From a virus: 64,000 nt of DNA. Below the pieces are notes generated by a model. It saw only the letters and a program-made list of their open reading frames with translations, was not told the origin of the DNA and ran no database searches. The translations under genes were made by a program, and so were the position numbers. Of the stretch, positions 1,413-59,456 are shown piece by piece; the stretch's first letter is position 1; each line of letters begins with the position of its first letter. The stretch covers positions 1-64,000 of the IMG/VR virus record IMGVR_UViG_3300049200_000099, one strand, 5' to 3'.

Positions 1413-3062
1413 ATGGCAAAAGAAGTAAATCAGGAGTCTCTTGACCTGTTAGGCAGCATTCAGCCAAAAGGTCAAGCAGATTTTACAACTGATGACATAG
1501 CTAATTACACTCCTCCTGACCTTACCACAGATCAGATGAATACTTATCGTCAGAGTCAGCAGACTCCGTCTACGGGTGCTTTGCCAAACTCTACGTATTA
1601 TCCCGATATGGGTAAGCAGATATCTGTAGGTGGCTATAGTGGAAGCCTCATTGGAAGCACTACTTTATTTGCGCCAGGCGGCGGAGTTGTTCCAATAGGA
1701 ATGATGGATGCGAGGGACCTAGCGGTACAAAAAGCTGCGATGCAAAAATCAAAAGAAATTGAAGATTTCAGAAAACAATTTCAGGCGCCAACAACAAAAC
1801 TTACAAACATTCAACCAGAGTTGAGCAATCAATATATCGATTATGTTCAAAAGTCATGGCAGGGAGCTCTACGTAAATCAGGCGGTGATGCCAAGATGGC
1901 CACAGAGTACTTAAAGAATGATAGTAATTTTGTAAAGAAGGAAAGGGCATATCAGGACCTTGCCCGTAACGGAAATGCTATAGTTGAAAAAATTGCCCAG
2001 GATGAAGAAGAAATAAAAACAGGAAGGTTTACACCCACTCCCGGATACAAAGAAGCGAAAAATAAAATAATGACAGCGCTGAATCCTTCTCATCCGGAAT
2101 TTCAGAATCTTGGGAATAATTTCAGGAAGTTGCAGGTTGAAAGGGATTTTGCGGATTCGTTTAATGATGTGACTAAAAAAATGGTTGCTGATCAGGCGGG
2201 TATTGCCTATGCCGATATTGACAGTAATCCGGAGTTTGCTAAAATCTACGAGGAAACTGTTAGTCAGTGGTCACCGGAACAAAAAGAAGCGGTAGCTAGA
2301 ACCCTGGAGCAAAACTTTTATCCTGGCAGCGATTACTGGACACCGGATCGTATTTCACAAAATGTTAGTGGGCTTATGTCCGGTAAACAGCAAAAGAAAA
2401 ATATTTCTCTAAACCAGAAGCATGAGGCCGATGGTGCTGGTTACAAATATGAAGATAGTGATATCTCCCAGGAACCAAGTTCAACTAATGTTTATACTAA
2501 AACAACCGGTGGTGGTTCTGCCCAGGGTGAGGTTGTTGGAGATTACGGCGTGACCCATAAAAAACCAATTAAAGCCATTGTTCCTAACGGACGCACAATA
2601 TATATAAACGATCCTGAAAAGGGGTTGATCAAAACTTCTGAGGTTAACCCAAATGCAGCAACTCAGCTTATTAAAACGCAACTGGTGAAGGTTTATGATG
2701 GTCCGGCTAAAGAACATGAAGGAACGCCTTTAAGCGAAGAGCAAATCAAATCAGGTCGTCCATGGAAATGGGGAGTAATGACTACCGGCGTAACAACAGA
2801 AGGAACCGGTGAAGATAAAAAGGAAACGCAATTTTTTATTCCAGCCAAGGAAGTTGAAAATATACTTGTAAAGAAAAAAGATCAAAAAGGTGCTGTTATA
2901 AACGGAGTACCTATTGATAAATTACAGACAGAAGCGGATAAGCGAAATTCTTCTAAAAAAACAGGTGGCACTTACACTATAAAAGGTAAAAAATATTCCC
3001 TATCAGCTTTGCAGGAAATGGGATATAACGAATCGCAACTTTCATCTTATAAAGATAAATAA
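1413..3062 (+). CDS. hypothetical virion-module protein
   Basis: 549-aa ORF. Its ATG directly follows the upstream TAA, within a same-strand packed block. Confidence 0.6.
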   Translation: MAKEVNQESLDLLGSIQPKGQADFTTDDIANYTPPDLTTDQMNTYRQSQQTPSTGALPNSTYYPDMGKQISVGGYSGSLIGSTTLFAPGGGVVPIGMMDARDLAVQKAAMQKSKEIEDFRKQFQAPTTKLTNIQPELSNQYIDYVQKSWQGALRKSGGDAKMATEYLKNDSNFVKKERAYQDLARNGNAIVEKIAQDEEEIKTGRFTPTPGYKEAKNKIMTALNPSHPEFQNLGNNFRKLQVERDFADSFNDVTKKMVADQAGIAYADIDSNPEFAKIYEETVSQWSPEQKEAVARTLEQNFYPGSDYWTPDRISQNVSGLMSGKQQKKNISLNQKHEADGAGYKYEDSDISQEPSSTNVYTKTTGGGSAQGEVVGDYGVTHKKPIKAIVPNGRTIYINDPEKGLIKTSEVNPNAATQLIKTQLVKVYDGPAKEHEGTPLSEEQIKSGRPWKWGVMTTGVTTEGTGEDKKETQFFIPAKEVENILVKKKDQKGAVINGVPIDKLQTEADKRNSSKKTGGTYTIKGKKYSLSALQEMGYNESQLSSYKDK

Positions 3063-6000
3063 TGGCCGGAGAAAATAAAGATAAAGATCCACTTGGAATT
3101 TTAGCTGCTGGTAGTGATACTAACAATACTGTGGACCCTCTTGGTATTTTGGATCAGCCATTAAAAAAAAAAGAACCTTTAGTATCGGAATCCACTACAG
3201 TTCCGGTGACACCCAATACCAGTGCTCCATCTGTTGTGGCGGGTGGTACATCAGGATTGAAATCAGAGCCATCAACATACCAGTGGGATCCAGCGAAGGA
3301 ACAACAGAGGATGTTCTCGGGAAACACGACTCAGCTGGGGAACAAGCTTGAGGTTGAAAAAAAGCCGTTAGCTGTAGGCACTACAGCATCTTCTCCTAAC
3401 CTTGGAACCGGAAATCAATCCGTCTTACGAAATCAGGTTAAAACGCAGCAAGATGCTGATGTAAAAAAAGTTTCAGATTATTACGATTCTTACCTAAAGA
3501 AAAAATCTGCTGCCCAATTACCTCCAACGGATGACGATTCTGTTAATTTTTACCTGGAGTACATAAAGGAAAACGATCCAGACGAATACAACTATACCCT
3601 TGATAAGTTTAAAAATTTATCGAATGACAAGGACAACACTTTGCTGTTTGAAAAATTCAAAGCGGAGCAAATGGAGAAGGCTTTAGCGCTCAAAACAAAA
3701 GCCTTTAGCGGCAAGTACCAGTTGGCGAAGAATAATATTGATAATTATTATAAAGATAAGCTGGATACATTTAAACAGGCTGACAATTCTTCCAGAAGTA
3801 TTGTTTCCGAAATTCAAAACATAGATACTCAGCTGGCTGGTTATGAAAGAGACCAAAATGGTGCCATAATCACTAATTCCGGTAACAGGAAAGAGGTTGA
3901 GAATTTTCTTAAAGAGCGTGAAACAAAAATAACCGAACTCGGATCTCATTCCAAAACTATTGAGGACTTAAAAGCTGATCAGGATTTTAATGATGCCGCA
4001 ACGCTTTTAGACGAGGTGAATGAGCAGTATAAAGATGTTGCCGGCAGATACAGATCGGTTGCAGAAAAGGATCCGGAAGCGTTTAGATCATTACCTGAGT
4101 TTCAGAAATTATTGAAAGAAAATCAAGCAACAAAAAGGCAACAAGAATTGGGAGGTTCGGTATCAGTAGCCGATCCAACAGGATTATCCCAGTCGATCGG
4201 AAGAGCGGTTACTAATTTTGCTTCTAAAATGGCCTTTGTTCCAAAATCGCTTACCGATAACTCTCAATACGGATGGACGGATAAGCTGTATGATGTAACA
4301 AAATCTTCAATAGATGACTTTAATGACGAGTACCAGTCACTGCCATCAGGGTACGAAAAGCCTATTCTGGAGAATGGCAATTGGAATTTAAAATATTTGC
4401 CGGCCAAAGTTGCTGGTACGGTTACTGATATGGGGTTAATGCTTATACCAGCAGTGGCTACCGAAGGATCGATAGCTGCCTTGGGTGTAACCGGTGACCT
4501 TGCATCCGGCATGGGCACATTTGCTTCTGGATACATGATGTCAGCTTCTGACTATTACGAACAGGCCAAACAGGCTGGACTAAGCGATAAGGAAGCTACA
4601 TCGTTTTCGCGATCAGTAGCTATGCAACAAGCGCTATTGGAATTGGTATCTCCAAATAAAGAGCTTTTAAAGCCCTCGTTGCTGAAAAAATCTTTTGACG
4701 ATGTTGCCTCAACCCTTGTAAAAGGAGCGTCTAAGAAGGAGGCGTTCATTGAAACAGCAAAAGAATTTTTAAATAAAACCGGAAAAGAGATTACCCAGGA
4801 AGAATTACAAACACTTGACGAGATTGTAAATAATTATGCGATCAACGAGGTTTCCGGAGCTAATGAAAGCGCCCGCCAGGGAATAGGTGAGCAAATGGTA
4901 GAGACTGCTATTATCACTGCCCTTTCTGCTGGTTTAATGTCAGGTAAATCTTCTGTAAAAACAAAATCTCAACTGTATAGCGAGTCGCTTTATATGGCTG
5001 CCAATAATCCTGAAAAAATGATGGAGACAATTGGTAGGCTGGTGAATGATGGTGCACTGCATCAAATGAAAGCGGATAATATTATCCAAAACATTGAAAT
5101 GGCCAGCCAGGCACTTACTAAAATTGATTCTAGGTTGCCTGATGATAAAAAGGCTAAAGCGCTTCCGTTGGTAATGGATAAGATGAAATTGGAAGAAGAG
5201 AAACGAAACCTTGACGCTTCGTTTCATGAGTCCAAAATGCAGGAGATAACTGAAAAAGAAGAGGAGATAAAAAAAATAGTTACTGGTGATTCCGATGTCG
5301 AGGCATCTCTTAAAGAAAAAGAAGAGTTGGATGATCTCCTTTGGGAAAAGGATAACGTTGGACTGAATACCGAACAGGAATCCAGGTTAACAGATTTATC
5401 TAAAAAATTAAATGTTGTTCAGGAAGAAAAGCAGGAAGGCGAGAAAGAAACTCCTGCTGCCAAAAAGGCAGAAAAAAAACCTACTGAAAAGAAAGAAAAG
5501 CCTGCCTCCAAAAAAGCTGAACTAACCAAAGAAATAAAAACGGAAGAGCCCTCTGTAGTAGTTGAGAAAAAAGAAGATGTTCCTGTTGCAGAAGAAGCCC
5601 CGGCCGAGATCGCTAAAGTTGAAGAGGCTGTAAAGCAAAACCAACTGGATTTTTTTAATGAAAAGATAACTGCCAAAGAATACAATGACAAAAATGATGA
5701 GTTACAGGAACAACTTAAACCAAAAATAAATGAAAACAAAGAAACCGAAAAAACCGATGAAGCCAAAGCCGAAGTATTAGATACTCCGGTGGCTGAAAAA
5801 AAAGTTACTGCTCAGGCAGTTTCAGGGACAACAGTTAAGGAGCCTTCTGTAAAAAAGGAGGTTCCTGTCACTGTTGTAAAAAAAGAAAAGCCAAAACAGG
5901 AATTGATCGATGAAGAAGAGGTGCTGGAATCTACAAAAGAAGATGATAAGGCTTCTGTTGATCGATTGAATCTTGATATGGAGGCCATGAAGCAGATTGG

Positions 6001-9958: not shown

Positions 9959-10525
9959 ATGTCAGGGCTTTCCTACCAAATATCCATTACAGAAGAAGGT
10001 GTAAGTTCCATCTTTATTCACGATTGCACGGGTCGATATAGTTATAAAAATGAAGGTGGTTTTGGTAAGCCAAATTTTGAATTAAAGGACATCAAGTCCT
10101 CTTTCTTATATATAACAGTTCCCCACGCAACAGAGCCGGTTAAAATCGACGTTACCGGTGTGTTTCCAAACAAAGAAGAAAACGGTTATGAAATATTGCC
10201 GTTTATGCTTGGACTTCCGAATAATGAAATAACAAGTGGGGAATACAAAGTAAAAGCTGAAATATCCGGTACAGACAAAAATGGGGTTGAATGGATCAGG
10301 ACAGTCCTGATTGCCAAAGTCTTTATTAACCAGGTTGTTTGCTGTGTTGACAAAATGCAGAAAATAGTTGATAAAGACGCCTTCAAAGATGAAAAGCAGA
10401 AATTAGCTATTGAACTTAGTAATTTAATTGAGTCTGTAAAGCATGGTGTTGATTGTGAATTGAACTCTACGGTTGTGGAAACCATCGAGTATATCAGAGC
10501 ACAGTGCCAGTGTTGCGGATGTTAA
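9959..10525 (+). CDS. tail-fibre-module protein ending in Cys cluster CQCCGC
   Basis: 188-aa ORF. The C-terminus is ...RAQCQCCGC, and there is an internal VVCCVD. Confidence 0.55.
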   Translation: MSGLSYQISITEEGVSSIFIHDCTGRYSYKNEGGFGKPNFELKDIKSSFLYITVPHATEPVKIDVTGVFPNKEENGYEILPFMLGLPNNEITSGEYKVKAEISGTDKNGVEWIRTVLIAKVFINQVVCCVDKMQKIVDKDAFKDEKQKLAIELSNLIESVKHGVDCELNSTVVETIEYIRAQCQCCGC

Positions 10526-10537
10526 ACTTTTATATCA

Positions 10538-11041
10538 ATGTGCAAAAAAGGTTGTAGTTGTAAAAAGTGCTGCGTAAAAGTAGTTACTAAAACTGGTCCA
10601 ATAGGACCCACAGGAAAGACTGGTAAAACTGGTCCCCAGGGTCCTATTGGACCAGCAGGTCCTGCTGGAGCAGGTGCTGAGATTACCGCCCAAATAGAAA
10701 CTTATGATCCAATTGACGGCGAAGATATTTCTGGAGCCGGATACGATGTAGTTATTCCAATTACCGTAGCTGGAAATTACATGTTTATGGGTTATCTTTT
10801 TGTAGTTGCCGCAGGATCACAAGAAATTACATTAACAAATTATAAGAATGCTGTGGCTGTTGGTATAGGCGCTGCGGCAGGAATGAATGCTGTTCATAAA
10901 ATGACTGACACGGCAAATATTCCTGTAGGAAATGGCACTTATCTTGGTCTTGTTCCTGGAGACAATTTAAAGATAAATGTTGCTTCAAGCGGAGCAGGTA
11001 AATTATTCGCTTCTGTTTTACAATTAATAAAACTACCATAA
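10538..11041 (+). CDS. collagen-like repeat tail-fibre protein
   Basis: N-terminal MCKKGCSCKKCC is followed by nine uninterrupted G-X-Y triplets (GPIGPTGKTGKTGPQGPIGPAGPAGAGA). Confidence 0.7.
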   Translation: MCKKGCSCKKCCVKVVTKTGPIGPTGKTGKTGPQGPIGPAGPAGAGAEITAQIETYDPIDGEDISGAGYDVVIPITVAGNYMFMGYLFVVAAGSQEITLTNYKNAVAVGIGAAAGMNAVHKMTDTANIPVGNGTYLGLVPGDNLKINVASSGAGKLFASVLQLIKLP

Positions 11042-28976: not shown

Positions 28977-30020
28977 TTATTCTTTATCGGTTATTTCTTT
29001 TCTAAGTCGCAATTCTTCCTTACGCTGATCGCAGAACTCTGCGACCGGACAAAAGCTAGCGCATTTTACTGACTCACCCGGGCGATATTCCTTGTACATC
29101 TTGGGATGCTTGTGTTTATTCTCAAGGATGAAACTATCTACCTGGCCTTCGGTATCAGCAACACGAAGTGCTTTTTTAGCATTGGGAGTTTTTACAGCCC
29201 ACTGATCGGCTTTGGCCCAGCGCTGCTGGCCGGTACACAGAGGAAGTATTCCGGTATCTTCGGTTTCCTTGTGGAAGGTGAGCAGTTCGCCGATCCAGGA
29301 TCCTACTTTTGGTGTTTCACCAATAGGAATAACGATTTCCTTTATCTGTTTGTCAGGATAATCCTTATGGCGCATGATGCCGGATTCCTGCCAGTCGCGG
29401 AAGAAAGCAACGACAACAATTTTATTAACAGTGTAGCCTTCCATCTTTAGCAGCCATGCATAGATATTTGTCTGGTATGCCCAGCTATCTTTTGACTCAG
29501 GATACATGTAAGAATATACCGAGCAAAATTTGTAATCGTAGAGGGTGTTGGTAAGAGTATCGAAAAGATCAAAGGTGCCATAAAGAACAATACCGTTGAT
29601 CTCCCGGCGCAGGGTAACCTCAAAGATATACCGGTTACCGATCTCCGGAAAGAACACAGGTATCAGGTCCTGCAAATACTTAGCGCATGCACGTAGCTGG
29701 TTGGCCCTGGCCTCTTCATTTGCATTCTGGTATTCCTGAGCTTTAGCGATCAGCGTATCGGCGGTAAGTATAAACGCCCGCTTACGAACATCGTCGATGT
29801 TAGCACGCTCAAGGATGTGGTGGAGGGCGGTTCCTAATAACATGTATAGCCTGTCGGAAACATCCTCTTCGTATTTATGTTTTTTCTTTAAGATACGAAT
29901 TCTTGGGCTATCGATTAATTGTGAAACTGAAATATCTCCAGCGACACGATGACTATCGTGCAAACAAGCTTTATAGATTGTCTCAGGAAGGTTGAGTTTA
30001 TTTGTTATTACTGCTGGCAT
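28977..30020 (-). CDS. PD-(D/E)XK exonuclease, RecB/Cas4-like with C-terminal Cys cluster
   Basis: GTFDLFD...LYDYKF (D...DxK), QTNIY (QxxxY), N-terminal Cys (YKACLHD) and C-terminal CASFCPVAEFC. Confidence 0.7.
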   Translation of the reverse strand: MPAVITNKLNLPETIYKACLHDSHRVAGDISVSQLIDSPRIRILKKKHKYEEDVSDRLYMLLGTALHHILERANIDDVRKRAFILTADTLIAKAQEYQNANEEARANQLRACAKYLQDLIPVFFPEIGNRYIFEVTLRREINGIVLYGTFDLFDTLTNTLYDYKFCSVYSYMYPESKDSWAYQTNIYAWLLKMEGYTVNKIVVVAFFRDWQESGIMRHKDYPDKQIKEIVIPIGETPKVGSWIGELLTFHKETEDTGILPLCTGQQRWAKADQWAVKTPNAKKALRVADTEGQVDSFILENKHKHPKMYKEYRPGESVKCASFCPVAEFCDQRKEELRLRKEITDKE

Positions 30021-30489
30021 GTCTTTTATTGGTTCTTATTAATGAAATTGTTTGTCTACTGATGTTAAACATTTTACCAATTTCAATAGTTGTTAAATTT
30101 GTAGTGTTCAATAAATTTTTGATTTCTAAAACTTCTTCATCAGTAAGTTTGGCCTGACCATTCTTTTCTCCCTTAGCGCTTTTTAGCCCTGTTGCATAAG
30201 CGTGTTTATGATTATCTGAATGAGTAATCCATTCAAGATTTTCTACTCTGTTATCATGTTTAATTCCGTTTTTATGATTTATGGCTGGCAGATTGTTTGG
30301 ATTAGGAATAAAAGATAATGCAATAAGTCTATGAACTAATTGAGTAGTTTCTTTTTTATTTATGCTAAGACAAACTCTCAAATATCGATCATCCTTCGGA
30401 GACAATATTTTACCATTCAAATTTGATATCCTACCATCAGCAGAGGCTTTATAAGGATAGAAACCGGGTATAGGCAAAAATTCACTCAT
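29998..30489 (-). CDS. HNH homing endonuclease with NUMOD4-type N-terminus
   Basis: FLPIPGFYPYKASADGRISN (NUMOD4-like), then INHKNGIKHDNRVENLEW (HNH) and a C-terminal HTH-like tail. Confidence 0.8.
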   Translation of the reverse strand: MSEFLPIPGFYPYKASADGRISNLNGKILSPKDDRYLRVCLSINKKETTQLVHRLIALSFIPNPNNLPAINHKNGIKHDNRVENLEWITHSDNHKHAYATGLKSAKGEKNGQAKLTDEEVLEIKNLLNTTNLTTIEIGKMFNISRQTISLIRTNKRHASSNNK

Positions 30490-30618: not shown

Positions 30619-31164
30619 TTATTTGTGAAATTTTATAAAAACGTAATTGTTTGACCTGTAATCATGACGAGTCCAATACTCTTCTTTTAATGTGTAAGAT
30701 GTATTTTCAAAAACAGACGGATTCTCTTTGTTAATGTAATAAAACTCAATTGCAGGTTCACCAAAAAGCTTCATTAACCAGGAATGTTTTTTATAATGTT
30801 TAACTGCTTTCTCAGGATACATCAAACAATCAACAAATTCCTTAAATGTTATAATTTTTCCTCTGAATTCAACGTTTTGCTTATCGGTAAGCTTGAAGTT
30901 GATATTTATCTTTGATTTACTCCTTACTACAACTTCAACGGTGTGATCTGCTCCAATATGAAAATGATCAATTATGCAGTAATTTTTATGGTCTTTGTTT
31001 AATTTACCTGTATAAACATGAAGGATTCCATTTTCTTCGCATACAATAGCATGCTGGCCGATGGAGGGTAATTCTGTATCAAATTTTTTTCCGTTTTCTA
31101 ACATAGTTTCAGATTTTAAATTTCCTGGAGAGGCAAGGTAGTCTTTTTGGGTTACTCGAACCAT
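30619..31164 (-). CDS. hypothetical protein
   Basis: The listed ORF starts at TTG 31233 and reads through the tRNA-like gene. The ATG at 31164 (MVRVTQKD) avoids it. The ATG at 31104 is also possible. Confidence 0.5.
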   Translation of the reverse strand: MVRVTQKDYLASPGNLKSETMLENGKKFDTELPSIGQHAIVCEENGILHVYTGKLNKDHKNYCIIDHFHIGADHTVEVVVRSKSKININFKLTDKQNVEFRGKIITFKEFVDCLMYPEKAVKHYKKHSWLMKLFGEPAIEFYYINKENPSVFENTSYTLKEEYWTRHDYRSNNYVFIKFHK

Positions 31165-31191
31165 TTTGACTACCGAGCGATCCCCGCTACG

Positions 31192-31264
31192 TGGAGAGGG
31201 ATGGATTCGAACCACCGACCTTCTGCTCTTCAAACAGACGCTCTACCTGCTGAGCTACCAATCC
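31192..31264 (-). tRNA. tRNA-Phe(GAA)-like gene with imperfect acceptor stem
   Basis: GGATTGG TA GCTC AGCAGGTA GAGC G TCTGT TTGAAGA GCAGA AGGTC GGTGG TTCGAAT CCATC CCTCTCC A. The D, anticodon and T arms are canonical. Pairs 4:69 and 5:68 are mismatched. Confidence 0.55.
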
Positions 31265-31533
31265 AAATTTCCCTGTTGCCAGGGAACTCCGTAATTTAAG
31301 CCGAAGCTACCATTACTACAGTTTTACTCAGTTACCTGAGTTCGGGATCACAATTTGCGGTCGTGATCTCCAGCAGTTACCTCCATTGACAGTACCGAAG
31401 TTCCCCTCGTTCGAACTGGAAGCGTTCTTTTCTGTCTTTGTACCTGCGCCATTGCCGCTACCATCACACACTGCATCTGTTTACCAGACTTCAATGTGCT
31501 TGGAATTTGAAACTGTTACGGTTGGATTTCTTG
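31265..31533 (-). ncRNA. structured RNA candidate rich in GNRA/UUCG tetraloop hairpins
   Basis: 10-bp helix 31282-31291/31396-31405, with a G-U pair only in minus sense. Hairpins capped GCAA (31271-31284), GUAA (31326-31341), UUCG (31299-31308) and GUAAA (31475-31489), plus a 6-bp hairpin at 31346-31368. Confidence 0.45.
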
Positions 31534-31611
31534 TGAACCGTCCCGGATTTGAACCGGGGACCTCCTTCTTGCTTGCGCGTGGGTGCTCTGGCCGGGCTGA
31601 GCTAACGGTTC
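31534..31611 (-). tRNA. tRNA-shaped element lacking a foldable anticodon arm (tRNA mimic or pseudogene)
   Basis: GAACCGT TA GCTC AGCCCGGCCA GAGC A [25 nt unpaired] CCCGG TTCAAAT CCGGG ACGGTTC A. The acceptor, D and T arms are perfect. Confidence 0.4.
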
Positions 31612-31621
31612 CAGCCACTGA

Positions 31622-31891
31622 TTACTCAGCAGCCTTATCTTCCGGCATGAACTGATCTTTTGTCGTCTCTGCCATAGCATCTTCCTTGCGATTTGGAAAA
31701 CCTTCGCTGCGAACCTTGTCGTTCTCGGTAGCAGCTTCGTTTTCAGCCATCGGATTTTTCATTTCTTCTTTAGAATCTTTTGATGGATCGCCGTTTTCTT
31801 TGGCATTTTCAGTTACAGGTGCAGTGCTACCTGAGTTCTCACCATTACCTTCATTGGTGGCTTCATTTTTGTTGTTTTCGTCTCCTGACAT
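31622..31891 (-). CDS. acidic, low-complexity (E/N/K-rich) protein
   Basis: 89-aa ORF with an ATG start and a composition suggesting intrinsic disorder. Confidence 0.45.
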   Translation of the reverse strand: MSGDENNKNEATNEGNGENSGSTAPVTENAKENGDPSKDSKEEMKNPMAENEAATENDKVRSEGFPNRKEDAMAETTKDQFMPEDKAAE

Positions 31892-31924
31892 AAAATAGGT
31901 TTTAAATGATTAATTATTTCCTCA

Positions 31925-31932
31925 CAAATGTA
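31925..31932 (-). promoter_or_regulatory. candidate -7 box (TACATTTG on minus strand)
   Basis: TAnnTTTG match in the 119-nt gap, about 34 nt upstream of the ATG at 31891. Confidence 0.3.
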
Positions 31933-32010
31933 GATTAATTTCCGCTTTTAACACTAAAAGCAGTAAAATATTTTATTAACAAAGTTATTGTAGTCTTGTT
32001 TAGATGGATT

Positions 32011-32475
32011 CTAAATAAAAACATACTTGCCGTTCTCAACACCAAGAAAAATAAAAAGCCCATACACGTGATGATACATGTTGTTAATGTCCTTTAAGGT
32101 TGTTTCAATAATGTCCTCTTTTAGGCTATCATAAAGGTATAATTTTCCATTTTGATCTATCTTTCCGCCAACAAGGTGATTTTTTCCTTTATCGGAAAAT
32201 CGGCAATTAATTAACACGGGTAAAAAATGAATACCTTCGCCAACAGGAATATAATGCAACGCAGAGTCCGGTAATTTTATTCCATTATGATCATAGTAAA
32301 GAACATCAATATAAAAAGGGTGGCCATCATCCTGCATCCATTTGGAAAGCTGTCCAATAAAATTACCATTTTTACTTAATTCAAGCCTTTCAGTGGTTAC
32401 AAAATTGTCTAAGTTACATGCGTTGGCGACAGCGTATAGTCCACATCCCCAAGGTTGCTTTTGTTTGTATTTCAT
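32011..32475 (-). CDS. papain-fold cysteine peptidase, C39-like
   Basis: The N-terminal QKQPWGCGLYAVANA has Gln six residues before the Cys, followed by CG. Later NHLVGG...LYLYDS resembles the C39 His...Asp arrangement. Confidence 0.4.
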   Translation of the reverse strand: MKYKQKQPWGCGLYAVANACNLDNFVTTERLELSKNGNFIGQLSKWMQDDGHPFYIDVLYYDHNGIKLPDSALHYIPVGEGIHFLPVLINCRFSDKGKNHLVGGKIDQNGKLYLYDSLKEDIIETTLKDINNMYHHVYGLFIFLGVENGKYVFI

Positions 32476-32942
32476 TTTATTCTGTTATAGTCTCTGCCGG
32501 CAAGGGAGGATTGTCTCATTTTCCATTCTACGGAATCCGGTATCTGCTGGTTAAATTTTGTCTCCAGGTGAAAGCAGATGTCTACAGCCCACTTGAGAAG
32601 CCTGGCTTTGGTCATTCCGCCAATATCCTCATAGATCGTTTGCACTTCACCGGTTATTTCGTTGACCATATCTTCCTTTGCGAATTCCGCCTGGAGCATA
32701 TAGCGAACCCTTACCTTGTCGATCCCCGCCCAGCCTGCGTTTGTATAGGCCTCGACCGCTGCGCGCATCAGAGGCCCAAATATAAAGGCATAGAGGCGTA
32801 ATTTCTCGCTCTTCTTTGAAAGGGCTGTAAGTTCAACATAAATCTCCTGGCCATCGTGCTCCATAAGATACTTAAACAGATCCTCCGGATTCTTCCAAAC
32901 CGGTTTACCGTCTTTAGCGAGTAGAGTGAATGTTACGTCCAT
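32472..32942 (-). CDS. hypothetical protein
   Basis: 156-aa ORF with a 4-nt overlap with the downstream gene. Confidence 0.45.
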   Translation of the reverse strand: MDVTFTLLAKDGKPVWKNPEDLFKYLMEHDGQEIYVELTALSKKSEKLRLYAFIFGPLMRAAVEAYTNAGWAGIDKVRVRYMLQAEFAKEDMVNEITGEVQTIYEDIGGMTKARLLKWAVDICFHLETKFNQQIPDSVEWKMRQSSLAGRDYNRIK

Positions 32943-46314: not shown

Positions 46315-46887
46315 CTATACCCTTATTTCTTTCCACGTTACCCGTTTACTGTCTATTGCATCCCTGATAAGCTTTTGCTTATCGTTAAGGACGCTACGAC
46401 CGGTCTTTACCTCAACAAAGATGATTGTAATGGGCTTCTTTTCGGAAGCGCCTGAGAACACAATCAAATCTATTGGGTTACCGATAAAACGGGCATCGCG
46501 GGGATTGAACTCGAAGGACTCAACGAACGGGATAAAATTCTCAACGTACTTGCCTGATAGTATGGCGTTCGAGCGGGTGACCGCATCGTGCCTTATATCG
46601 GCTTCCCATTGCATTTTATAGCGTTCAAAGTCTAGGTCGAACTCCTTTTTAATTGCCGTCTTTATGTGGTCAGTTTCAGCGGCTTGCCATTCAGTGAATA
46701 GCTGGCGTGCTGAGACCTCACGGGCGGTTAACAATCGCTTATTCTCATCACTTAACCTGTAGACCCATATAATGAGGATAAGGATAGCGATGAGCGAAGC
46801 AACGATAAACCAGCCATTCGGCGGGTTAGCCTGCATTATGTAGGCTTTATAGTGTATAAGCATTGTATATTGTTTAGATTGTGGCAT
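46315..46887 (-). CDS. membrane-anchored PD-(D/E)XK endonuclease (archaeal Holliday-junction-resolvase-related family)
   Basis: An N-terminal TM helix and a coiled coil are followed by C-terminal GNPIDLIVF...IIFVEVKTGRSVLNDKQKLIRDAI. Confidence 0.5.
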   Translation of the reverse strand: MPQSKQYTMLIHYKAYIMQANPPNGWFIVASLIAILILIIWVYRLSDENKRLLTAREVSARQLFTEWQAAETDHIKTAIKKEFDLDFERYKMQWEADIRHDAVTRSNAILSGKYVENFIPFVESFEFNPRDARFIGNPIDLIVFSGASEKKPITIIFVEVKTGRSVLNDKQKLIRDAIDSKRVTWKEIRV

Positions 46888-47009
46888 AATTGCCTGTAAG
46901 ACCCCAAACCGCTTAACCGTCTTACCTGTTAGCTTTTTCCGTATTACTGAGCGTTTGTACTCGCCCCGCTTTCATTTGCGCGTCGGTTGTTACATGATGT
47001 CAATGAACC

Positions 47010-47017
47010 CAAAGTTA
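47010..47017 (-). promoter_or_regulatory. candidate -7 box (TAACTTTG on minus strand)
   Basis: TAnnTTTG match about 120 nt upstream of the ATG at 46887. A second match (TATCTTTG) is at 47180-47187. Confidence 0.3.
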
Positions 47018-47869
47018 ACCCTGCCCCGTAAAACCCCTATAATATGAGAACACCCTATCTCCCCTGTGCTGTTTCCTGTGTCAATTATAGCGGGCTACTG
47101 TCTGCCCTTCAATCTGTTAACCTCTCAATGAACGTGGGTGCCTGTTGTCTTTAGTGCTTTAGTACCCGATTTGTTGACACAAAGATACAACGACAAACCT
47201 GCCATGTCAAGTAACTAAAGTTATTGGACACATGACAGAATGGCATGATTTGACTGTAACTGGCTGCTGGTTACTGTGTTATGAGCCTATTTAGAATGGG
47301 TCTAAGTTTGCTTTTTAACATATCAATGAGTATTAATTGGTAGAGTTATTAGTTCGTGGCTCACAAACAAACAAATTAAATACCAGCGAGTTATGAGACC
47401 ATTGACCAGTCTCCAGCACATGTATGATAATTAACATTATGTTAAGTAGGAATCTAACACACTGATACACAGCACACAGTAGTCGGGAGCAAGCGCTTAC
47501 AATGGGCTAATGACTATATGACAGTTAAATTAGGTGCTGTTAGTCGGTTGCTGTCTGGTTTGGGTTCCGATTTGAAAGGGGGGCAGGGGGTAGAAGGTAG
47601 TAGTTAATACCCACCCACACTTATATTGATCCACAACACCTACCGGGGCCCTAATGAACACATCTGATGGACAAGCAGTTACCAAAGTATCCAGAATCCA
47701 GCCACTGCGATCTGCCACCAGGGCTGTACAGTTGCCGTGAGCAGGATAACCAGGTAAAAACCCGGCAGAATAACCTGGTAGCTGTACAATGATCTGCTAA
47801 TAGGCTGGGAAAAAAAATAAAATAGGCCCCTAGGGGGTCTAGGGTAGTGGTACTTTAATGGATAGAGAT

Positions 47870-47883
47870 AAAAATCGATTTTT
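47870..47883. repeat. perfect 14-nt palindrome AAAAATCGATTTTT
   Basis: Self-complementary over all 14 nt, 226 nt upstream of the XRE gene. Candidate operator. Confidence 0.5.
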
Positions 47884-48092
47884 AGCGTGTTAGAATGACC
47901 TAGGAATCGAGAACTATAAACTCATTGCATGGACGCTCATTTAAAGGGTGGATGCGTTGTAGGGCAGATTTTTCATGGCATAAAGTTGGTGGATCGGTCG
48001 TTTGTGGAAAATTTTTCCTGTTCAGGACCAATGTGTTGCTATAAAAAATACACATTCTTCGGGTGAAATGTTGGCAAACATGAGAAATGATG

Positions 48093-48100
48093 TATATTTG
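48093..48100 (+). promoter_or_regulatory. candidate -7 box TATATTTG for the XRE gene
   Basis: TAnnTTTG match whose G lies 9 nt before the ATG at 48109. Confidence 0.4.
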
Positions 48101-48108
48101 TAGCATAA

Positions 48109-48333
48109 ATGGAACGAAACACAGAGCAAGGCACCAAAAATTTGGTAAAGATCATCAGGGATACGCGGAAGGCGAAAAGGTTCACGCAGGAACAAATGGC
48201 CGCCGCCCTTGGGATCAACAGGTCCTCCTACGGCCATGTTGAAACGGGTACCCACAAGTTGTCGGTAGATATGTTATGTAAAGCCTGTGGTGTTTTGGGG
48301 CTAGAAGTTAAAATTGTTAATCCTTTGAATTGA
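48109..48333 (+). CDS. XRE-family helix-turn-helix transcriptional regulator
   Basis: FTQEQMAAALGINRSSYGHVETGTHKLSVDML is the classic XRE HTH pattern. 74 aa. Confidence 0.7.
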   Translation: MERNTEQGTKNLVKIIRDTRKAKRFTQEQMAAALGINRSSYGHVETGTHKLSVDMLCKACGVLGLEVKIVNPLN

Positions 48334-48626
48334 TGCCTGACTGCAAAAAGGTAAAGTTTTACCGGGAACAAGATGCTTTGGACCTTATTGCCAGGTATAA
48401 GCGAACGGCAAAAAAAGTGGAGTTGGAGAGAAGGGTTTATTTTTGTGATCACTGTAGTAACTGGCATATAACATCAAAACCATTGCTGCTACAAAAACAA
48501 ATGGAGAATATGCAGCGGCAGATCGATAACCTGAAAAGAAAACTGGAGCACTATAAAAAAGAGAATGACAGATTAAAAGAAAAACTGACACCAAGGATAT
48601 GGCAAAACGGAAAAATGAAAAGCTGA
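48330..48626 (+). CDS. hypothetical protein (CxxC + coiled coil)
   Basis: 98-aa ORF containing FCDHCSNWH, followed by a heptad-like tail. Confidence 0.45.
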   Translation: MMPDCKKVKFYREQDALDLIARYKRTAKKVELERRVYFCDHCSNWHITSKPLLLQKQMENMQRQIDNLKRKLEHYKKENDRLKEKLTPRIWQNGKMKS

Positions 48627-54931: not shown

Positions 54932-55334
54932 TTTGCAACCACATTTTAGCTTCTTCGACAGCGGTTATAGCTGTGATCAGGTGTGTGAAGAACATTGCCC
55001 TGCCCTCCTCTGGAACCTTGGTATCGTATGCTGATCTGTAAAGTTCCTTTGTAGCGGAGATGTCAGCATCCATAGAATCACAAAGCTCATCGATCTGCTT
55101 GTGGTATTCTTCGGAGTCAAAATTATATTCCTCCAGGTTATTTGGCCAGGCTTGCTTTGTACCCATATCGCTGATTGTAAGAGAAAGGTATATCTTGCTC
55201 TTCATCATGCCGTGCATGGCTTTTTCAACGTAGCCATAGTTCTCTGGGAATTTTAGTAGAAATTTTACTAATCCGGACTCTGTTTTTTGCTGGAGTTTGA
55301 TTCTATTGTTGATCTGTTCTAAATTTATTGCCAT
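54891..55334 (-). CDS. hypothetical protein
   Basis: The ATG at 55334 (MAINLEQ) is preferred. The listed N-terminal extension to 55394 runs into a strong hairpin. Confidence 0.45.
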   Translation of the reverse strand: MAINLEQINNRIKLQQKTESGLVKFLLKFPENYGYVEKAMHGMMKSKIYLSLTISDMGTKQAWPNNLEEYNFDSEEYHKQIDELCDSMDADISATKELYRSAYDTKVPEEGRAMFFTHLITAITAVEEAKMWLQIEREAYFNVKNAG

Positions 55335-55455
55335 GGTAAATGTGTTTTTTAAGAACCCCCACTGGTGCCCCGGTTCGCAGAGAACTCTGCACATTCGTTC
55401 TCTACCTGCGGGGGCACCTGAGTTTTTAGTCCCGGATGTGCGTCCAGGCGGGTTT

Positions 55456-56202
55456 TTATTTTACTAACTTTTCTACTTTTAAATGTTCAAATTCTACGGT
55501 GTGATCGGTCATAAGTTCCGTTTCAACATAAAATTTGGCCCTGGTCCTGGCGTCATGATCATCATCGGCCATAAACACAGGAACTGTAACTTTTTTTGAG
55601 TCATCTCCATCCGGAGAATACGAGGCTGTAAACTTTTCCATTTCCCTGACTTCTATATTAAAAGATTTAACTTCATTGTCACCATGAACCTGAATGTTCA
55701 AAGAGTAAAACACCGCATACGCAATACGATGATTTGGTATCCGGAGTTTTGTTTGCCTGAATATATCGTTCTCCTGTTTCTCCAAAATAACCCACTCTAA
55801 AGGATCTTCATCATTGCGAAACAATGAAATTTTATCGTTGTACTTTGAGGTATATATTTTAGTGGGGTTATCTTTAATTGACTTAGGCCCTACGGTTTTT
55901 TTAAAGCCAAAGTCATCAGGGATAAATGGAGAATCTTCCAGTATATGTGTAATTTGATTCTCTGCAATTTTAAGCGCTTCCTGAAAGTCAAATAATCTAT
56001 CATAAAGAAAGTCTAACATTTCCTCATCACTCATTGTTTCTTTCATTCGCGGAAATGCGCCAGGCTCCACGCTCATTCGCACCCTGTTTTCATTGTCAAT
56101 AGTTAAAATCGGCCTAGAGACAAGTTGCTCTCTTGAGATGCTTTTTTCATAGGGATAGCCCTTGGTTGTACTATGGCCCGGTTTCCAGTTGTCTGTTATC
56201 AT
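55456..56202 (-). CDS. hypothetical protein
   Basis: 248-aa ORF. Confidence 0.45.
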   Translation of the reverse strand: MITDNWKPGHSTTKGYPYEKSISREQLVSRPILTIDNENRVRMSVEPGAFPRMKETMSDEEMLDFLYDRLFDFQEALKIAENQITHILEDSPFIPDDFGFKKTVGPKSIKDNPTKIYTSKYNDKISLFRNDEDPLEWVILEKQENDIFRQTKLRIPNHRIAYAVFYSLNIQVHGDNEVKSFNIEVREMEKFTASYSPDGDDSKKVTVPVFMADDDHDARTRAKFYVETELMTDHTVEFEHLKVEKLVK

Positions 56203-56906: not shown

Positions 56907-56988
56907 TGGTATGCCACATCCTTGGTCCCTTGGGGTAAGGACATAGCAATTTTTTGAAACTCCTGATGATGCCTTCAAAAGTTGGAGA

Positions 56989-57258
56989 TTATGCGACCGC
57001 TGTGGTGATCGCCGTTTTCAAGTTGGTAAGGCTTGTGTTCCTTGCTGCCGAAGTAGCAAAAGGAATAGTCACCGACTTGGTTGGGCCACCCTGGCTTCTG
57101 TATGTAATAAGGATATTAAACCTTGCGGTGTTTGCCGGCCCATTTGGATCGGCAGGGATATCCTGCGATACTGCATCATGAACATCATCAACATTCACCA
57201 ATGTATTAGGCGAAAGGGAGTTCGTAAAATTTACTGTTGGTTTTGCAATGCCTGACAT
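56989..57258 (-). CDS. hypothetical protein (apparently monocistronic)
   Basis: 89-aa ORF bracketed by terminator-like hairpins. Confidence 0.45.
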   Translation of the reverse strand: MSGIAKPTVNFTNSLSPNTLVNVDDVHDAVSQDIPADPNGPANTARFNILITYRSQGGPTKSVTIPFATSAARNTSLTNLKTAITTAVA

Positions 57259-57344
57259 GTCTTTAGTTTTTTGAGGTTATTGGCATAAAAGTAGTGTGAA
57301 AATTTCGTTTGTCCAAATTCTTACTCAATTTATAATGAGTCTAA

Positions 57345-57380
57345 ATAAAAAAGGTCCCAGGAGTGACTCCGGAACCTTTT
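57345..57380. terminator. possible bidirectional terminator
   Basis: A-run, an imperfect hairpin with core GGAG-tga-CTCC inside GGT...ACC, then TTTT. Confidence 0.3.
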
Positions 57381-57448
57381 CGATGTTTAAAACCCGTTTT
57401 TTACTATTACGGTAAAAAATATGGAAAAGAACGTGGGGTAAATGTAAA

Positions 57449-57479
57449 CAAAAAACCCGGAAGTCTATCGCCGGGTTTT
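57449..57479. terminator. bidirectional terminator after gene 57507..57812
   Basis: CAAAAAA-CCCGG-aagtctatcg-CCGGG-TTTT. In minus sense the stem is followed by TTTTTTG. Confidence 0.6.
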
Positions 57480-57506
57480 AAGTATAAAACTAAGGTACCA
57501 ACAAAA

Positions 57507-57812
57507 CTAACACTGTTTTATCGCACAATTTATAAGCCATAGCTTATCGGTCGGCAAAAGATCATGATTTGGTAGTGGCGTTGCTAAATAGTTTATACGT
57601 GTCCATTGTCGCATATACTCATCCGGTTCAGGGTTGAGAATAGCTTTATGGAGCTCTAAACTCAGATCATTATAATCCTTTTGTGTTTTCGAAAGAAACG
57701 CCTTGTCATCACTGACCTTGTAGTACTTACCTACATCGTTGGCATAGCTTACGCTTGTTACGATCGCCACCAGGCAACCGATCAAGAGAGTAGCAAAAAT
57801 TGATTTTTTCAT
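57507..57812 (-). CDS. secreted protein (signal peptide)
   Basis: MKKSIFATLLIGCLVAIVTSVSYA, then a mature part. A LIGC lipobox-like site is also present. Confidence 0.55.
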   Translation of the reverse strand: MKKSIFATLLIGCLVAIVTSVSYANDVGKYYKVSDDKAFLSKTQKDYNDLSLELHKAILNPEPDEYMRQWTRINYLATPLPNHDLLPTDKLWLINCAIKQC

Positions 57813-57832
57813 GTGGATAAAAGTACACGGAA

Positions 57833-57863
57833 TTTGTTAAATAAAAAAATATACCTACTTTTG
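57833..57863 (+). promoter_or_regulatory. consensus Bacteroidota promoter (TTTG-N19-TACTTTTG)
   Basis: -33 TTTG at 57833-57836 and -7 TACTTTTG at 57856-57863, with 19-nt spacing. Confidence 0.55.
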
Positions 57864-57867
57864 TTGT

Positions 57868-57963
57868 GTCATCTGGCGATGATCAAATAAAAATTTTCTT
57901 TTCGGGAAACCGAGCAAGCCCACTTCCAAATCCGCCAGATGACCCGGTGGGTTTTGTGTTTTT
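57868..57963 (+). ncRNA. promoter-proximal hairpin RNA with U-run (sRNA or attenuator candidate)
   Basis: 11-bp stem 57868-57878/57933-57943 encloses a GAAA-capped hairpin (57902-57913). It is followed by ACCC-ggt-GGGT and TTTGTGTTTTT. Confidence 0.4.
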
Positions 57964-58250
57964 GGGGGTATGCTGAACGGACAACGGTGGCGGCATACCC
58001 AGCAGTGAGCTACCACGGGCACACATAACTCAAGCGGCGGCAGTGAAAGGGAAGAGCCGGTGTGAATAGGGCATGAAAACCTATGCTAAGTTGATCCCTG
58101 GCTACATCATACATGTGTGGTGTAGTCGCGCACAGTGGCTGTTCGGCTCGTTCAAGCAAGCACCTGGCGTGAAGTTGCCAACAGAAGATCAAGCGTCTTT
58201 TGGTAGGGCACTTCACGCAGTGGCCCCAGGGCGTTCTCTCATTTAGCAAA
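57964..58250 (+). ncRNA. GC-rich multi-helix RNA element (unclassified; leader or stand-alone RNA)
   Basis: Helices: 57966-57973/57993-58000 (8 bp), 58100-58106/58121-58127 (7 bp) and 58167-58175/58210-58218 (9 bp). No plausible coding frame. GC is clearly above the flanks. Confidence 0.4.
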
Positions 58251-58323
58251 CCTTTTTCTTTAAGTAACTAAAGGTAACCAAGTCAATAAAGTTTCAAGCC
58301 TGCGATTTATCGGTAATTTTTTC

Positions 58324-58331
58324 TACATTTG
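58324..58331 (+). promoter_or_regulatory. candidate -7 box TACATTTG
   Basis: TAnnTTTG match whose G lies 6 nt before the GTG at 58337. Confidence 0.3.
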
Positions 58332-58336
58332 TTTCT

Positions 58337-58612
58337 GTGAACTCTGGATGGAGAAAACTACGTGCCATTGTGTCTGGTTTTAAGAACTACCGTTTTAAAA
58401 ACGAATATTTCGAGAACCTGGCAAAAGAAAGGGCTAAAGTGTGCGCCGCATGCCCCGAAGCTAATCCAGAACATCCGTTTAAACTATTACTCGATGATAA
58501 CGTAACCGTAGAGCCAATAAAGGGCATGGGATGCAAAATATGCAATTGTTACCTGCCGGCAAAGGTGAGACAGGCATTCGAGGGATGCCCCCTTAAAAAG
58601 TGGAAAGAATAA
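58337..58612 (+). CDS. Cys-rich (zinc-binding-like) small protein
   Basis: 91-aa ORF with a GTG start. It contains CAACPEANPEHPF...GCKICNCY...GCP. Confidence 0.45.
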   Translation: MNSGWRKLRAIVSGFKNYRFKNEYFENLAKERAKVCAACPEANPEHPFKLLLDDNVTVEPIKGMGCKICNCYLPAKVRQAFEGCPLKKWKE

Positions 58613-58652
58613 AAGTTATTAACAATTTAATATTAAAAAATAAATTTAACCC

Positions 58653-59456
58653 ATGAAAAGACAAGATGCCATTATCCTTGAATCTGGCCGCCGCCAAATT
58701 CTTATAGATCACGCCAACCACTTTTTTCAACTATATGCCGGTACAATGAATGCCCAGGCTAAAATAGATATTAAAGCCGCTGCAACAGAAGCAATCACCC
58801 AGCTTCGTAATATTGAAGCTGAACTTTTTGATACGCTTTCAATCGATTATACACAAGGTGTTTACGATTCTGATGTTGCCTATATCAGCAGGGTAGCCAT
58901 TCCGCAGCAAGCCCTGGAGGACAATATGAGTTACTTTGGCCTGGAGATAACGGCGATCAAAGAAGCCCTTGAAGAAGAAATTGAACAGTTGCAGTTTATC
59001 AAAGATGTCGATGGTGAAGAAAATGGTTTTGTTGATAAAACCGGGGACTGGACAACAGCCGAAGAAGATGCCATAGTGGCCCTGGAGGACCTTATCACAG
59101 CAATAGAAGCAGCAAATAACGGTATCATTACCGCTAATATTGATCTTTCATTCCCTGATACCGCAACATCTGCCACCAATGCGCAGGACATATTTACTGT
59201 TGCCGGATCTGGCCTTGATGGTGATATCACAATAACTAAAGTGGGCGCCACTGCTGATCAGTGGAAATTCATGGATGAAGGTGCTCCGGTTGATAGTTTA
59301 ACGTTCTCTCCGGTAGACGGCGTAGTGGATACGGAAACAATTAATTTCAGGTTCCAGCCAACAACCGAAGGAGTAAAGGATATTACAGTTCGGATATCTT
59401 CCCCAGGAATGGCAGACATAGACAAAGTGATCACCGGAACCGCTATTGCTCCGTAA
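58653..59456 (+). CDS. hypothetical protein (paralogue of next gene at N-terminus)
   Basis: 267-aa ORF. The N-terminus MKRQDAIILESGRRQILID compares with MKRQNEILTLSTQRQRLLD in the next gene. Confidence 0.45.
   Translation: MKRQDAIILESGRRQILIDHANHFFQLYAGTMNAQAKIDIKAAATEAITQLRNIEAELFDTLSIDYTQGVYDSDVAYISRVAIPQQALEDNMSYFGLEITAIKEALEEEIEQLQFIKDVDGEENGFVDKTGDWTTAEEDAIVALEDLITAIEAANNGIITANIDLSFPDTATSATNAQDIFTVAGSGLDGDITITKVGATADQWKFMDEGAPVDSLTFSPVDGVVDTETINFRFQPTTEGVKDITVRISSPGMADIDKVITGTAIAP

Follow-up and report, generated by a model that had tools for sequence, protein, structure and literature searches.

A pseudoknotted structured RNA encoded between a tRNA-like element and a tRNA-Phe gene in a variable interval of a phage genome

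The IMG/VR virus record IMGVR_UViG_3300049200_000099 contains, in the 64,000-nt stretch analyzed here in full (positions 1 to 64,000; the window), a 269-nt spacer at 31265-31533 on the minus strand, and the question raised by this locus is whether a functional RNA is encoded between the two tRNA-type units that border it. An earlier note, made from the letters alone, described the spacer as a tetraloop-rich structured RNA that is read from the minus strand. Analysis of the spacer showed that it encodes a genuine structured non-coding RNA with a pseudoknot on the minus strand. The minimum free energy (MFE) of the minus strand is -87.2 kcal/mol (z = -4.92), and none of 200 shuffles was equally stable, whereas the same shuffle test gave z = -0.89 for the plus strand. 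In a genome scan of 270-nt segments on both strands, the spacer ranked 6th of 472 by z and had the second-lowest MFE, although these ranks are noisy because only 10 shuffles were used for each segment. The conserved core of the window RNA, folded alone, gave z -3.86. The hairpins listed in the note are also present where it placed them when the minus strand is read directly: CCCUG-GCAA-CAGGG at 31284-31271, AGC-UUCG-GCU at 31308-31299, GUCUG-GUAAA-CAGAU at 31489-31475, and the 6-bp hairpin GAUCAC...GUGAUC at 31368-31346, together with a hairpin at 31341-31326 that is described below.

The two flanking units differ in kind. On one side lies a genuine tRNA-Phe(GAA) gene (31191..31264, minus), which is called by ARAGORN and scores 62.1 bits against the Rfam tRNA model, with mismatched acceptor pairs 4:69 and 5:68. 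On the other side is a tRNA-like element (31534..31611, minus) that scores 45.3 bits against the same model and is not called by ARAGORN, which found one tRNA in the whole window. This element has a perfect 7-bp acceptor stem and intact D and T arms, and 16 unpaired nt stand in place of the anticodon-arm core in the Rfam tRNA alignment; it was also aligned with phage tRNA-Phe genes. The genes from 18.7 to 48.7 kb around the RNA are on the minus strand, and the RNA is co-oriented with them. The position between two tRNA-type units given in the note is thus correct, and the arrangement is that of a non-coding RNA embedded in a tRNA cluster, in which a structured RNA and the tRNA-type units on either side of it lie on one strand. 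Gene orientation and a promoter-like box suggest that the tRNA-like element, the RNA, and tRNA-Phe share a single transcription unit.

The RNA has a conserved core of approximately 200 nt (31516-31318), which forms a multi-branch fold closed by the helix P1 and enclosing a pseudoknotted S1/S2/H3 module. All of the following features are on the minus strand. A conserved 17-nt leader, CAAGAAAUCCAACCGUA (31517..31533), directly follows the 3' end of the tRNA-like element. The P1 5' strand ACAGUUU (31510..31516) pairs with AAACUGU (31318..31324) in the MFE folds, and the latter strand lies within the block UAAAACUG, which is common to the window RNA and to the second member described below. S1 is formed by CAGGUAC (31440..31446) and GUAACUG (31374..31380) with one G.A mismatch and is found in both MFE folds. 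S2 is formed by GACAG (31432..31436) and CUGUC (31388..31392), the latter strand being supported by the comparison of paired changes. These strands enclose the hairpin H3, GAAC-GCUUCCA-GUUC (31413..31427), and a small local hairpin, CGAGG-GGAA-CUUCG (31396..31409), which is present in the MFE folds. The 7-nt loop of H3 (31423-31417) is conserved as GCWUCCA and provides the 5' strand of the pseudoknot, in which CUUCCA (31422-31417) pairs with UGGAGG (31380..31385), a strand with the consensus UGGAKG located just 5' of the S1 return strand. A reading of the S1/S2 internal loop as a K-turn or an 11-nt receptor was considered and dropped. A T-box-like reading of the H3 loop was also dropped: this loop has UUC in the window and AUC in the second phage, and the position covaries with its intramolecular partner. 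Hairpin C, GGAGAUCAC...GUGAUCCC (31344..31371), and hairpin D, ACUCAG-GUAA-CUGAGU (31326..31341), follow the module in the MFE folds. The position of hairpin C is kept in the second phage but its sequence is not, and hairpin D occurs in the window only.

Conservation of this architecture was established through L218, a Logan contig from a distant sister phage whose exonuclease is 54% identical to that of the window. In L218, the RNA directly follows a complete tRNA-Phe, and in both phages it begins 17 nt past the 3' end of the tRNA or tRNA-like unit. The 12-mer CAGGUACAAAGA and the block AUGGAKGUAACUGC are common to both RNAs, with a spacing of 66 versus 64 nt. A 26-nt stretch comprising the leader and the P1 5' strand is identical at about 19 of 26 positions (z 5.6, 0 of 300 shuffles), and the P1 3' strand is also similar (z 3.1, 1 of 300 shuffles). 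Since blocks of 12-14 nt are identical while the adjacent protein is only 35% identical, selection appears to act on the RNA.

The helices themselves have changed in a compensatory manner. S1 is invariant between the two phages. In S2, GACAG/CUGUC of the window is replaced by GAACA/UGUUC in L218, so that three pairs are changed on both sides, and in the H3 stem, GAAC/GUUC is replaced by GGC/GCC with two pairs changed on both sides, which gives the L218 hairpin GGC-GCAUCCA-GCC. In the pseudoknot, CUUCCA/UGGAGG becomes CAUCCA/UGGAUG, where one U-G pair is converted to A-U. S1, S2, H3, and the pseudoknot comprise 20 scored pairs, all of which form in both sequences, and six are altered on both sides. 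When the partners were slid by 1-3 columns as controls, only 0-1 double-changed pairs and 18-36% pairing were obtained. The two-sequence alignment was padded by hand, and the neighboring invariant blocks determine its helix columns. P1, which was compared by eye, reads ACAGUUU/AAACUGU in the window and UCAGUU/AACUGA in L218, the first pair having changed from A-U to U-A. The two cores folded independently into the same topology, with P1, then S1/S2 enclosing H3 and a small hairpin, and then hairpin C. The pseudoknot helix appears in centroid folds of L218. At the position of the local hairpin 31396-31409, L218 differs and has another small hairpin, and at the position of hairpin C it has AAAGCCU-UUCGU-AGGCUUU. 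The second phage therefore keeps the core with compensatory changes, and the absence of conservation or covariation that the note named as refuting its proposal was not observed.

The 10-bp long-range helix that the note placed around this region fared differently. The complementarity between GGGAACUUCG (31405-31396) and CGGAGUUCCC (31291-31282), including one G-U pair, does exist, but it is not the organizing frame of the RNA. It runs from inside S2, S1, and P1 to the outside and thus crosses the conserved helices, it competes with the local hairpin 31396-31409, it is absent from the MFE folds of the window RNA, and no counterpart was seen by eye in L218. By our estimate, chance alone would give about 0.2 complements of 10 nt with one G-U pair in 270 nt, and the helix is therefore not significant alone. 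It is at best a window-specific alternative or a tertiary contact. Nor does the conserved core include the UUCG hairpin or the two tetraloop hairpins (31341-31326 and 31284-31271).

The remainder of the spacer consists of a variable insert and a 3' tail. The insert of approximately 63 nt (31447..31509) is without equivalent in L218 and holds a long hairpin (31499-31466) with the tip GUCUG-GUAAA-CAGAU, as well as a GGUAGCGG segment. The tail (31269..31316) folds into two hairpins with GGAGUUC: GUAAU-GGU-AGC-UUCG-GCU-UAA-AUUAC at 31316-31291 and UUCCCUG-GCAA-CAGGGAA at 31286-31269, the second of which was scored as terminator-like. The tail combination of GGAGUUC and CCUG-loop-CAGG resembles, by eye, the terminal elements of the related loci L003, L136, and L219. 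Short collinear words are shared between the insert and tail of the window and L003, L219, L136, and L213, which suggests a mosaic of hairpin modules, although alignment statistics failed for these words.

Several observations in the relatives concern these non-conserved parts. L003:5750-5985 is a separate promoter-to-terminator non-coding unit of approximately 230 nt with a fold z of -2.2. It shares GUCUGGUAAAC and, 17-18 nt later, GGUAGCGG with the window at 31489-31455, and it may be a mosaic relative of the non-conserved insert. A three-hairpin terminal element, composed of AGUUGUCCUUC-loop-GGAAGUUCU, CCUG-loop-CAGG, and a terminator with the conserved loop UACUUYAAC, was found at the end of RNA cargo at L003:5924-5985, L136:3594-3664, L219:3765-3830, and L224 (approximately 1895-1960), with apparent compensatory changes among these four loci. 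The window keeps from this element only GGAGUUC and CCUG-GCAA-CAGGG (31290-31271). A likeness to L141 2620-2865 that had been seen by eye was dropped, as the fold z of that stretch was +0.46.

By kind, the element is a phage structured non-coding RNA located among tRNA genes that fails every sequence-family and structure-family test run. With Rfam 15, nothing matched the spacer at the gathering score over the whole window or at E<=10 within 30900-31900, and on L218 the search at E<=10 returned tRNA only. A BLAST search of the locus against 50,697 GenBank phage records returned tRNA-Phe matches only. GOLLD and ROOL, to which the note had pointed as large ornate RNAs beside phage tRNA genes, gave no match at the gathering score or at E<=10, and the 269-nt element is under their 500-nt class size. 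The view in the note that no family can be assigned therefore stands. RNase P RNA was dropped, as no P4 consensus was seen by eye.

The genomic setting of the RNA was analyzed through approximately 225 fetched loci, some of which are duplicates or chance pattern matches. The window itself corresponds to a Logan metagenome contig of approximately 75 kb. The genes near the RNA form a replication and recombination module with a helicase, an SbcC-like ATPase, a PD-(D/E)XK exonuclease, an HNH endonuclease, and a methyltransferase. The exonuclease (window 28977-30020) has hundreds of homologs with 45-62% identity, many of them located on contigs of approximately 60-75 kb, and the order F0 (window 32472-32942), variable interval, exonuclease, ATPase, and helicase is conserved. 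A palindrome resembling TTAGAAnnnTTCTAA with one mismatch (32000..32014, minus) opens the interval and is a candidate operator; the exact palindrome TTTAGAAnnnTTCTAAA occurs in the hotspots of L003, L134/135, L141, L213, and L214/215. Further downstream is the promoter-like box TACATTTG (TAnnTTTG; 31925..31932, minus), and the same box follows the palindrome in L003, L007, L140, L137, and L213. In most relatives, the hotspot begins with this pair of motifs. We take the box to be a Bacteroidota-type -7 promoter-like element. Judged from these motifs, the palindrome and the box are likely an operator plus an early or middle promoter, and the box is likely the start of the transcript that carries an 89-aa open reading frame (ORF), the tRNA-like element, the RNA, and tRNA-Phe.

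The variable interval of the relatives contains tRNA-Phe in L007, L140, L141, and L218, tRNA-Met in L219, and small basic ORFs. A circularly permuted (two-piece) tmRNA occupies the same hotspot at L214:1278-1647 and L215:498-867, where ARAGORN reports tmRNA* with the tag DTQVEYRAAA and the Rfam tmRNA_permuted model scores 43.8 bits against a cut-off of 47. This permuted tmRNA lies beside Bacteroidota-type promoter-like boxes and outside the clades behind the Rfam permuted-tmRNA models. Because an Acb2/Tad1-hairpin-like gene (L219:3091-3351) and a Tad2-like gene (L224:1395-1718) are also found in the interval in relatives, it can be regarded as a counter-defence island. The interval is thus a hypervariable accessory hotspot of the counter-defence type, in which RNAs related to translation are frequent.

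In this hotspot, the cassette has as its third member an orphan ORF of 161 aa (30619..31104, minus), located downstream of tRNA-Phe. Its product is 35% identical to that of L218:3522-3998 (E 1e-26) and 39% identical to that of an ORF on the partial contig L149; among all fetched loci, homologs were found in the window, L218, and L149 only. Some protein searches with the ORF returned only itself and L149, and a search of a 1.84-billion library at E<=0.001 gave 14 proteins, two of which are the query's own sequences, leaving 12 further ones. No Pfam or PHROG family was matched, a profile built from five sequences found no match in IMG/VR, and the AlphaFold model has a pLDDT of 35. A conserved 'module N' just upstream of the ORF was considered and rejected (z 1.2). 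The RNA and the homologous ORF co-occur in both assessable genomes, in the order tRNA-like element, RNA, tRNA-Phe, and ORF in the window and tRNA-Phe, RNA, and ORF in L218. The tRNA-Phe(GAA) genes of both cassettes (window 31191-31264; L218:3216-3289) have non-Watson-Crick acceptor pairs at 4:69 and 5:68, while those of L007, L140, and L141 have perfect acceptor stems.

The leading reading, which is held tentatively and at a little less than an even chance, is that the element is a stable accessory non-coding RNA that would be cut from a tRNA-bearing transcript by tRNA-processing enzymes and would act in trans. A polycistronic early or middle transcript would start at the palindrome-plus-promoter region (approximately 32014-31925) and run through the 89-aa ORF, the tRNA-like element, the RNA, and tRNA-Phe. 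Processing at the 3' end of the tRNA-like element would leave the 17-nt leader as the 5' end of the RNA, and an RNase P cut at the 5' end of tRNA-Phe would set its 3' end; the anticodon-less tRNA-like element would probably serve mainly as a 5' processing handle. The freed RNA would be the RNA member of a three-part accessory cassette in a counter-defence-type hotspot. During infection, its action would most likely be in trans, perhaps jointly with the 160-aa protein or directed at the translation or tRNA machinery. A more specific proposal is that the RNA, the unusual tRNA-Phe, and the protein of approximately 160 aa form a previously undescribed RNA-protein accessory system in the counter-defence hotspot, for example one in which the RNA, as a decoy or cofactor, would shield tRNA-Phe or translation from tRNA-targeting host immunity or re-route either of them. 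This proposal is speculative and unlikely as it stands.

Several results weigh against the reading of a processed, trans-acting RNA. Only two members, those of the window and L218, are known, and covariation statistics from two hand-padded sequences are weak. The L218 RNA is no stabler than its shuffles (z -0.5 and -0.4). When 0.67 Mb of related loci were searched with R1, a covariance model of the module, no third member emerged, and the exact patterns GGTACAAAG..ATGGANGTAACTG gave three matches in IMG/VR and one, in a bacterial genome, among 185,579 genomes, all of them chance matches in coding DNA. The order of the RNA followed by tRNA-Phe in the window is reversed in L218, and the evidence for processing by RNase P and RNase Z is positional. 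One homolog of the 161-aa protein, P0124, abuts another gene and leaves no room for the RNA; the link between the RNA and the protein is therefore not obligatory. In the other searches for relatives, a 37-mer from the window had no match in an exact-sequence scan, the pattern CTGGTAAAC..GGTAGCGG gave 47 matches of which the real one is the L003 contig only, and comparison of the spacer with the hotspots of relatives by nhmmer and Smith-Waterman was not significant. A 17-bit match of R1 in L132 was rejected, as it lacks H3. The element is accordingly a well-supported but rare candidate, known from two genomes.

The rival explanation that survives best is a cis-acting leader of the 160-aa gene, that is, a riboswitch-like sensor, an attenuator, or a translational operator. 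In L218, the homologous ORF comes directly after the core, its ATG lying approximately 90 nt beyond the P1 3' strand. That both assessable genomes carry the RNA as well as the ORF fits such a role, as does the terminator-like character of the window hairpin at 31286-31269. A pseudoknotted pocket closed by a P1 helix is also a typical aptamer architecture. In the window, however, a complete tRNA-Phe stands between the RNA and the ORF, so that tRNA processing would sever the leader from its message. The stretch upstream of the ORF is not significantly alike between the two phages (z 1.2), no conserved expression platform, intrinsic terminator, or anti-terminator alternative was found there, and P0124 has no upstream space for a leader. 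With riboswitch and T-box models, the one match at E<=10 was to SAM/SAH; it lies outside the element and is at chance level (12.1 bits, E 9.7). A cis-acting leader is thus rather unlikely, and release of the RNA from a tRNA-bearing transcript is preferred.

An improbable alternative is that the spacer is non-functional and consists of decayed tRNA or tmRNA copies in a fast-turnover hotspot, its hairpins being leftovers. The hotspots of relatives are full of tRNAs, tRNA-like fragments, and a tmRNA, and the upstream element is itself a tRNA that lost its anticodon arm. The spacer contains T-loop-like words (GUUCGAA, UUCAAAU) and UGGUAGC words, its local alignments to relatives are not significant, and conservation does not extend to the 63-nt insert or to several of the tetraloop hairpins. 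Against this, the tRNA model (RF00005) matched only the two flanking units within 30900-31900 at E<=10, tmRNA models matched nothing in the spacer at that threshold, and ARAGORN reported no tmRNA, so the element is not recognizable tRNA debris; a match revealing such debris is what the note had named as refuting its proposal. Decay would also not be expected to keep blocks of 12-14 nt identical beside a protein that is only 35% identical, to preserve helices through six double compensatory changes, or to give the same topology in independent folds.

Catalysis was considered in two forms: a self-cleaving ribozyme that frees the neighboring tRNA, or a degenerate group I-like intron. Small self-cleaving ribozymes occur beside phage tRNAs, and the RNA combines a pseudoknot and GNRA loops with words that by eye resemble group I J3/4 and P7 (GUUUCAAAUUC, CAGUUCGAAC). 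These words, however, belong to the variable part of the conserved module or fall outside it, and the group I intron model (RF00028) gave no match at E<=10 in the window or L218. Both flanking tRNA-type units are complete alone, so there are no exons to join. None of the self-cleaving classes in Rfam 15 (hammerhead, HDV-like, twister, pistol, and hatchet) matched at E<=10, and on inspection the helix order is unlike the HDV-like nested double pseudoknot. A catalytic role is quite improbable.

A role as a tmRNA-type element, divergent or CDS-less and acting jointly with the upstream tRNA-like domain, is very improbable. A sister phage does carry a circularly permuted tmRNA in the same hotspot, and AACCGU (31523-31518) offers an alternative partner for the 3' acceptor strand of the tRNA-like element, a pairing that mimics a permuted-gene topology. 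A G-U pair at 3:70 is the alanine identity pair, but in the tRNA-like element the 3:70 pair is A-U, and the acceptor stem is a perfect 7-bp helix of its own. Forms of tmRNA that lack a CDS are known, among them one from a mycobacteriophage (PMC11915505). The tmRNA models (RF00023, RF04321, RF01849-51) gave no match at E<=10 and ARAGORN found no tmRNA in the window, whereas the positive control L214 was detected at 43.8 bits with an ARAGORN call. In addition, L218 has the RNA without any tRNA-like domain beyond an ordinary tRNA-Phe, and the short frames after the module (AGDHDRKL in the window and AKPFVGFK in L218) are mutually unrelated and not tag-like. Finally, a small protein is the least probable product. 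On the transcribed strand, two ORFs (47 and 48 aa) do overlap this region, and relatives have small basic ORFs at the same position. The conserved blocks, however, are read in different frames, as the 2-nt spacing difference shifts the second block. In L218, the interval from the tRNA to the first block contains no start codon, and the one ORF that spans the core has its start within the tRNA. Conservation is also paired and compensatory, not located at third codon positions.

The preferred reading of an RNA freed from a tRNA-bearing transcript can be compared with several known systems. GOLLD can carry tRNAs in its linker (PMC12286853). Like the element, GOLLD (RF01998) and ROOL (RF03087) are phage-borne, often located by tRNA islands, structured with pseudoknots, and of unknown function. 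They differ from it in size (approximately 500 to >800 nt versus approximately 270 nt, with a core of approximately 200 nt), in sequence, and in fold, and the element is known from two genomes only. The stable RNAs of the T4 tRNA cluster, 'species 1 and 2' (RNA C and D), are small, of unknown function, co-transcribed with the tRNAs, and freed by tRNA processing. Their maturation is the mechanism proposed here, whereas the phage lineage and host are unrelated, and we know of no pseudoknotted module or linked protein gene for species 1 and 2. MALAT1 mascRNA and the tRNA-miRNA units of gammaherpesvirus 68 use tRNA-shaped non-decoding units as RNase P and RNase Z signals. The anticodon-less element at 31534-31611 fits such use as a processing signal, but these systems are eukaryotic or eukaryotic-viral, and here the cleavage is inferred. 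The permuted tmRNA (RF04321) is tRNA-related, pseudoknot-rich, and matured by tRNA enzymes (PMC11915505). It shares the hotspot in L214/L215, and the window differs from it in having no tmRNA match, tag frame, or G3-U70 pair and in the topology of its tRNA-like element. Among the phage structured RNAs beside tRNA genes (GOLLD, ROOL, and the T4 stable RNAs), none has an established role. The element described here is compact enough for structure work and genetics: its core is pseudoknotted, its maturation route is plausible, and a protein gene is linked to it. Should the 160-aa protein prove to be a partner of the RNA, or tRNA-Phe its target, the RNA would represent an RNA-based accessory or counter-defence function.

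Other observations were made in the hotspot and in the rest of the window. Odd tRNA-like units were found in L213 (3562-3644), L143 (approximately 2890-3070), and, by eye, L212 (approximately 2520-2640). For L143:2975-3070, ARAGORN reports a 96-nt tRNA of undetermined type with a four-base anticodon (gatg), and the Rfam tRNA model scores 40.7 bits. The HNH endonuclease gene of the window (29998-30489, minus) overlaps the start of the exonuclease gene, and no HNH gene stands directly before the exonuclease in the relatives compared for gene order; it therefore looks like a homing-endonuclease insertion. Two stretches of the window of 1.5-1.7 kb, 46887-48385 and 56978-58653, are without long ORFs. 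In the coarse scan, strongly negative fold z values were also obtained at 5615-5884 (plus), 10475-10744 (plus), 55295-55564 (minus), and 57725-57994 (plus).

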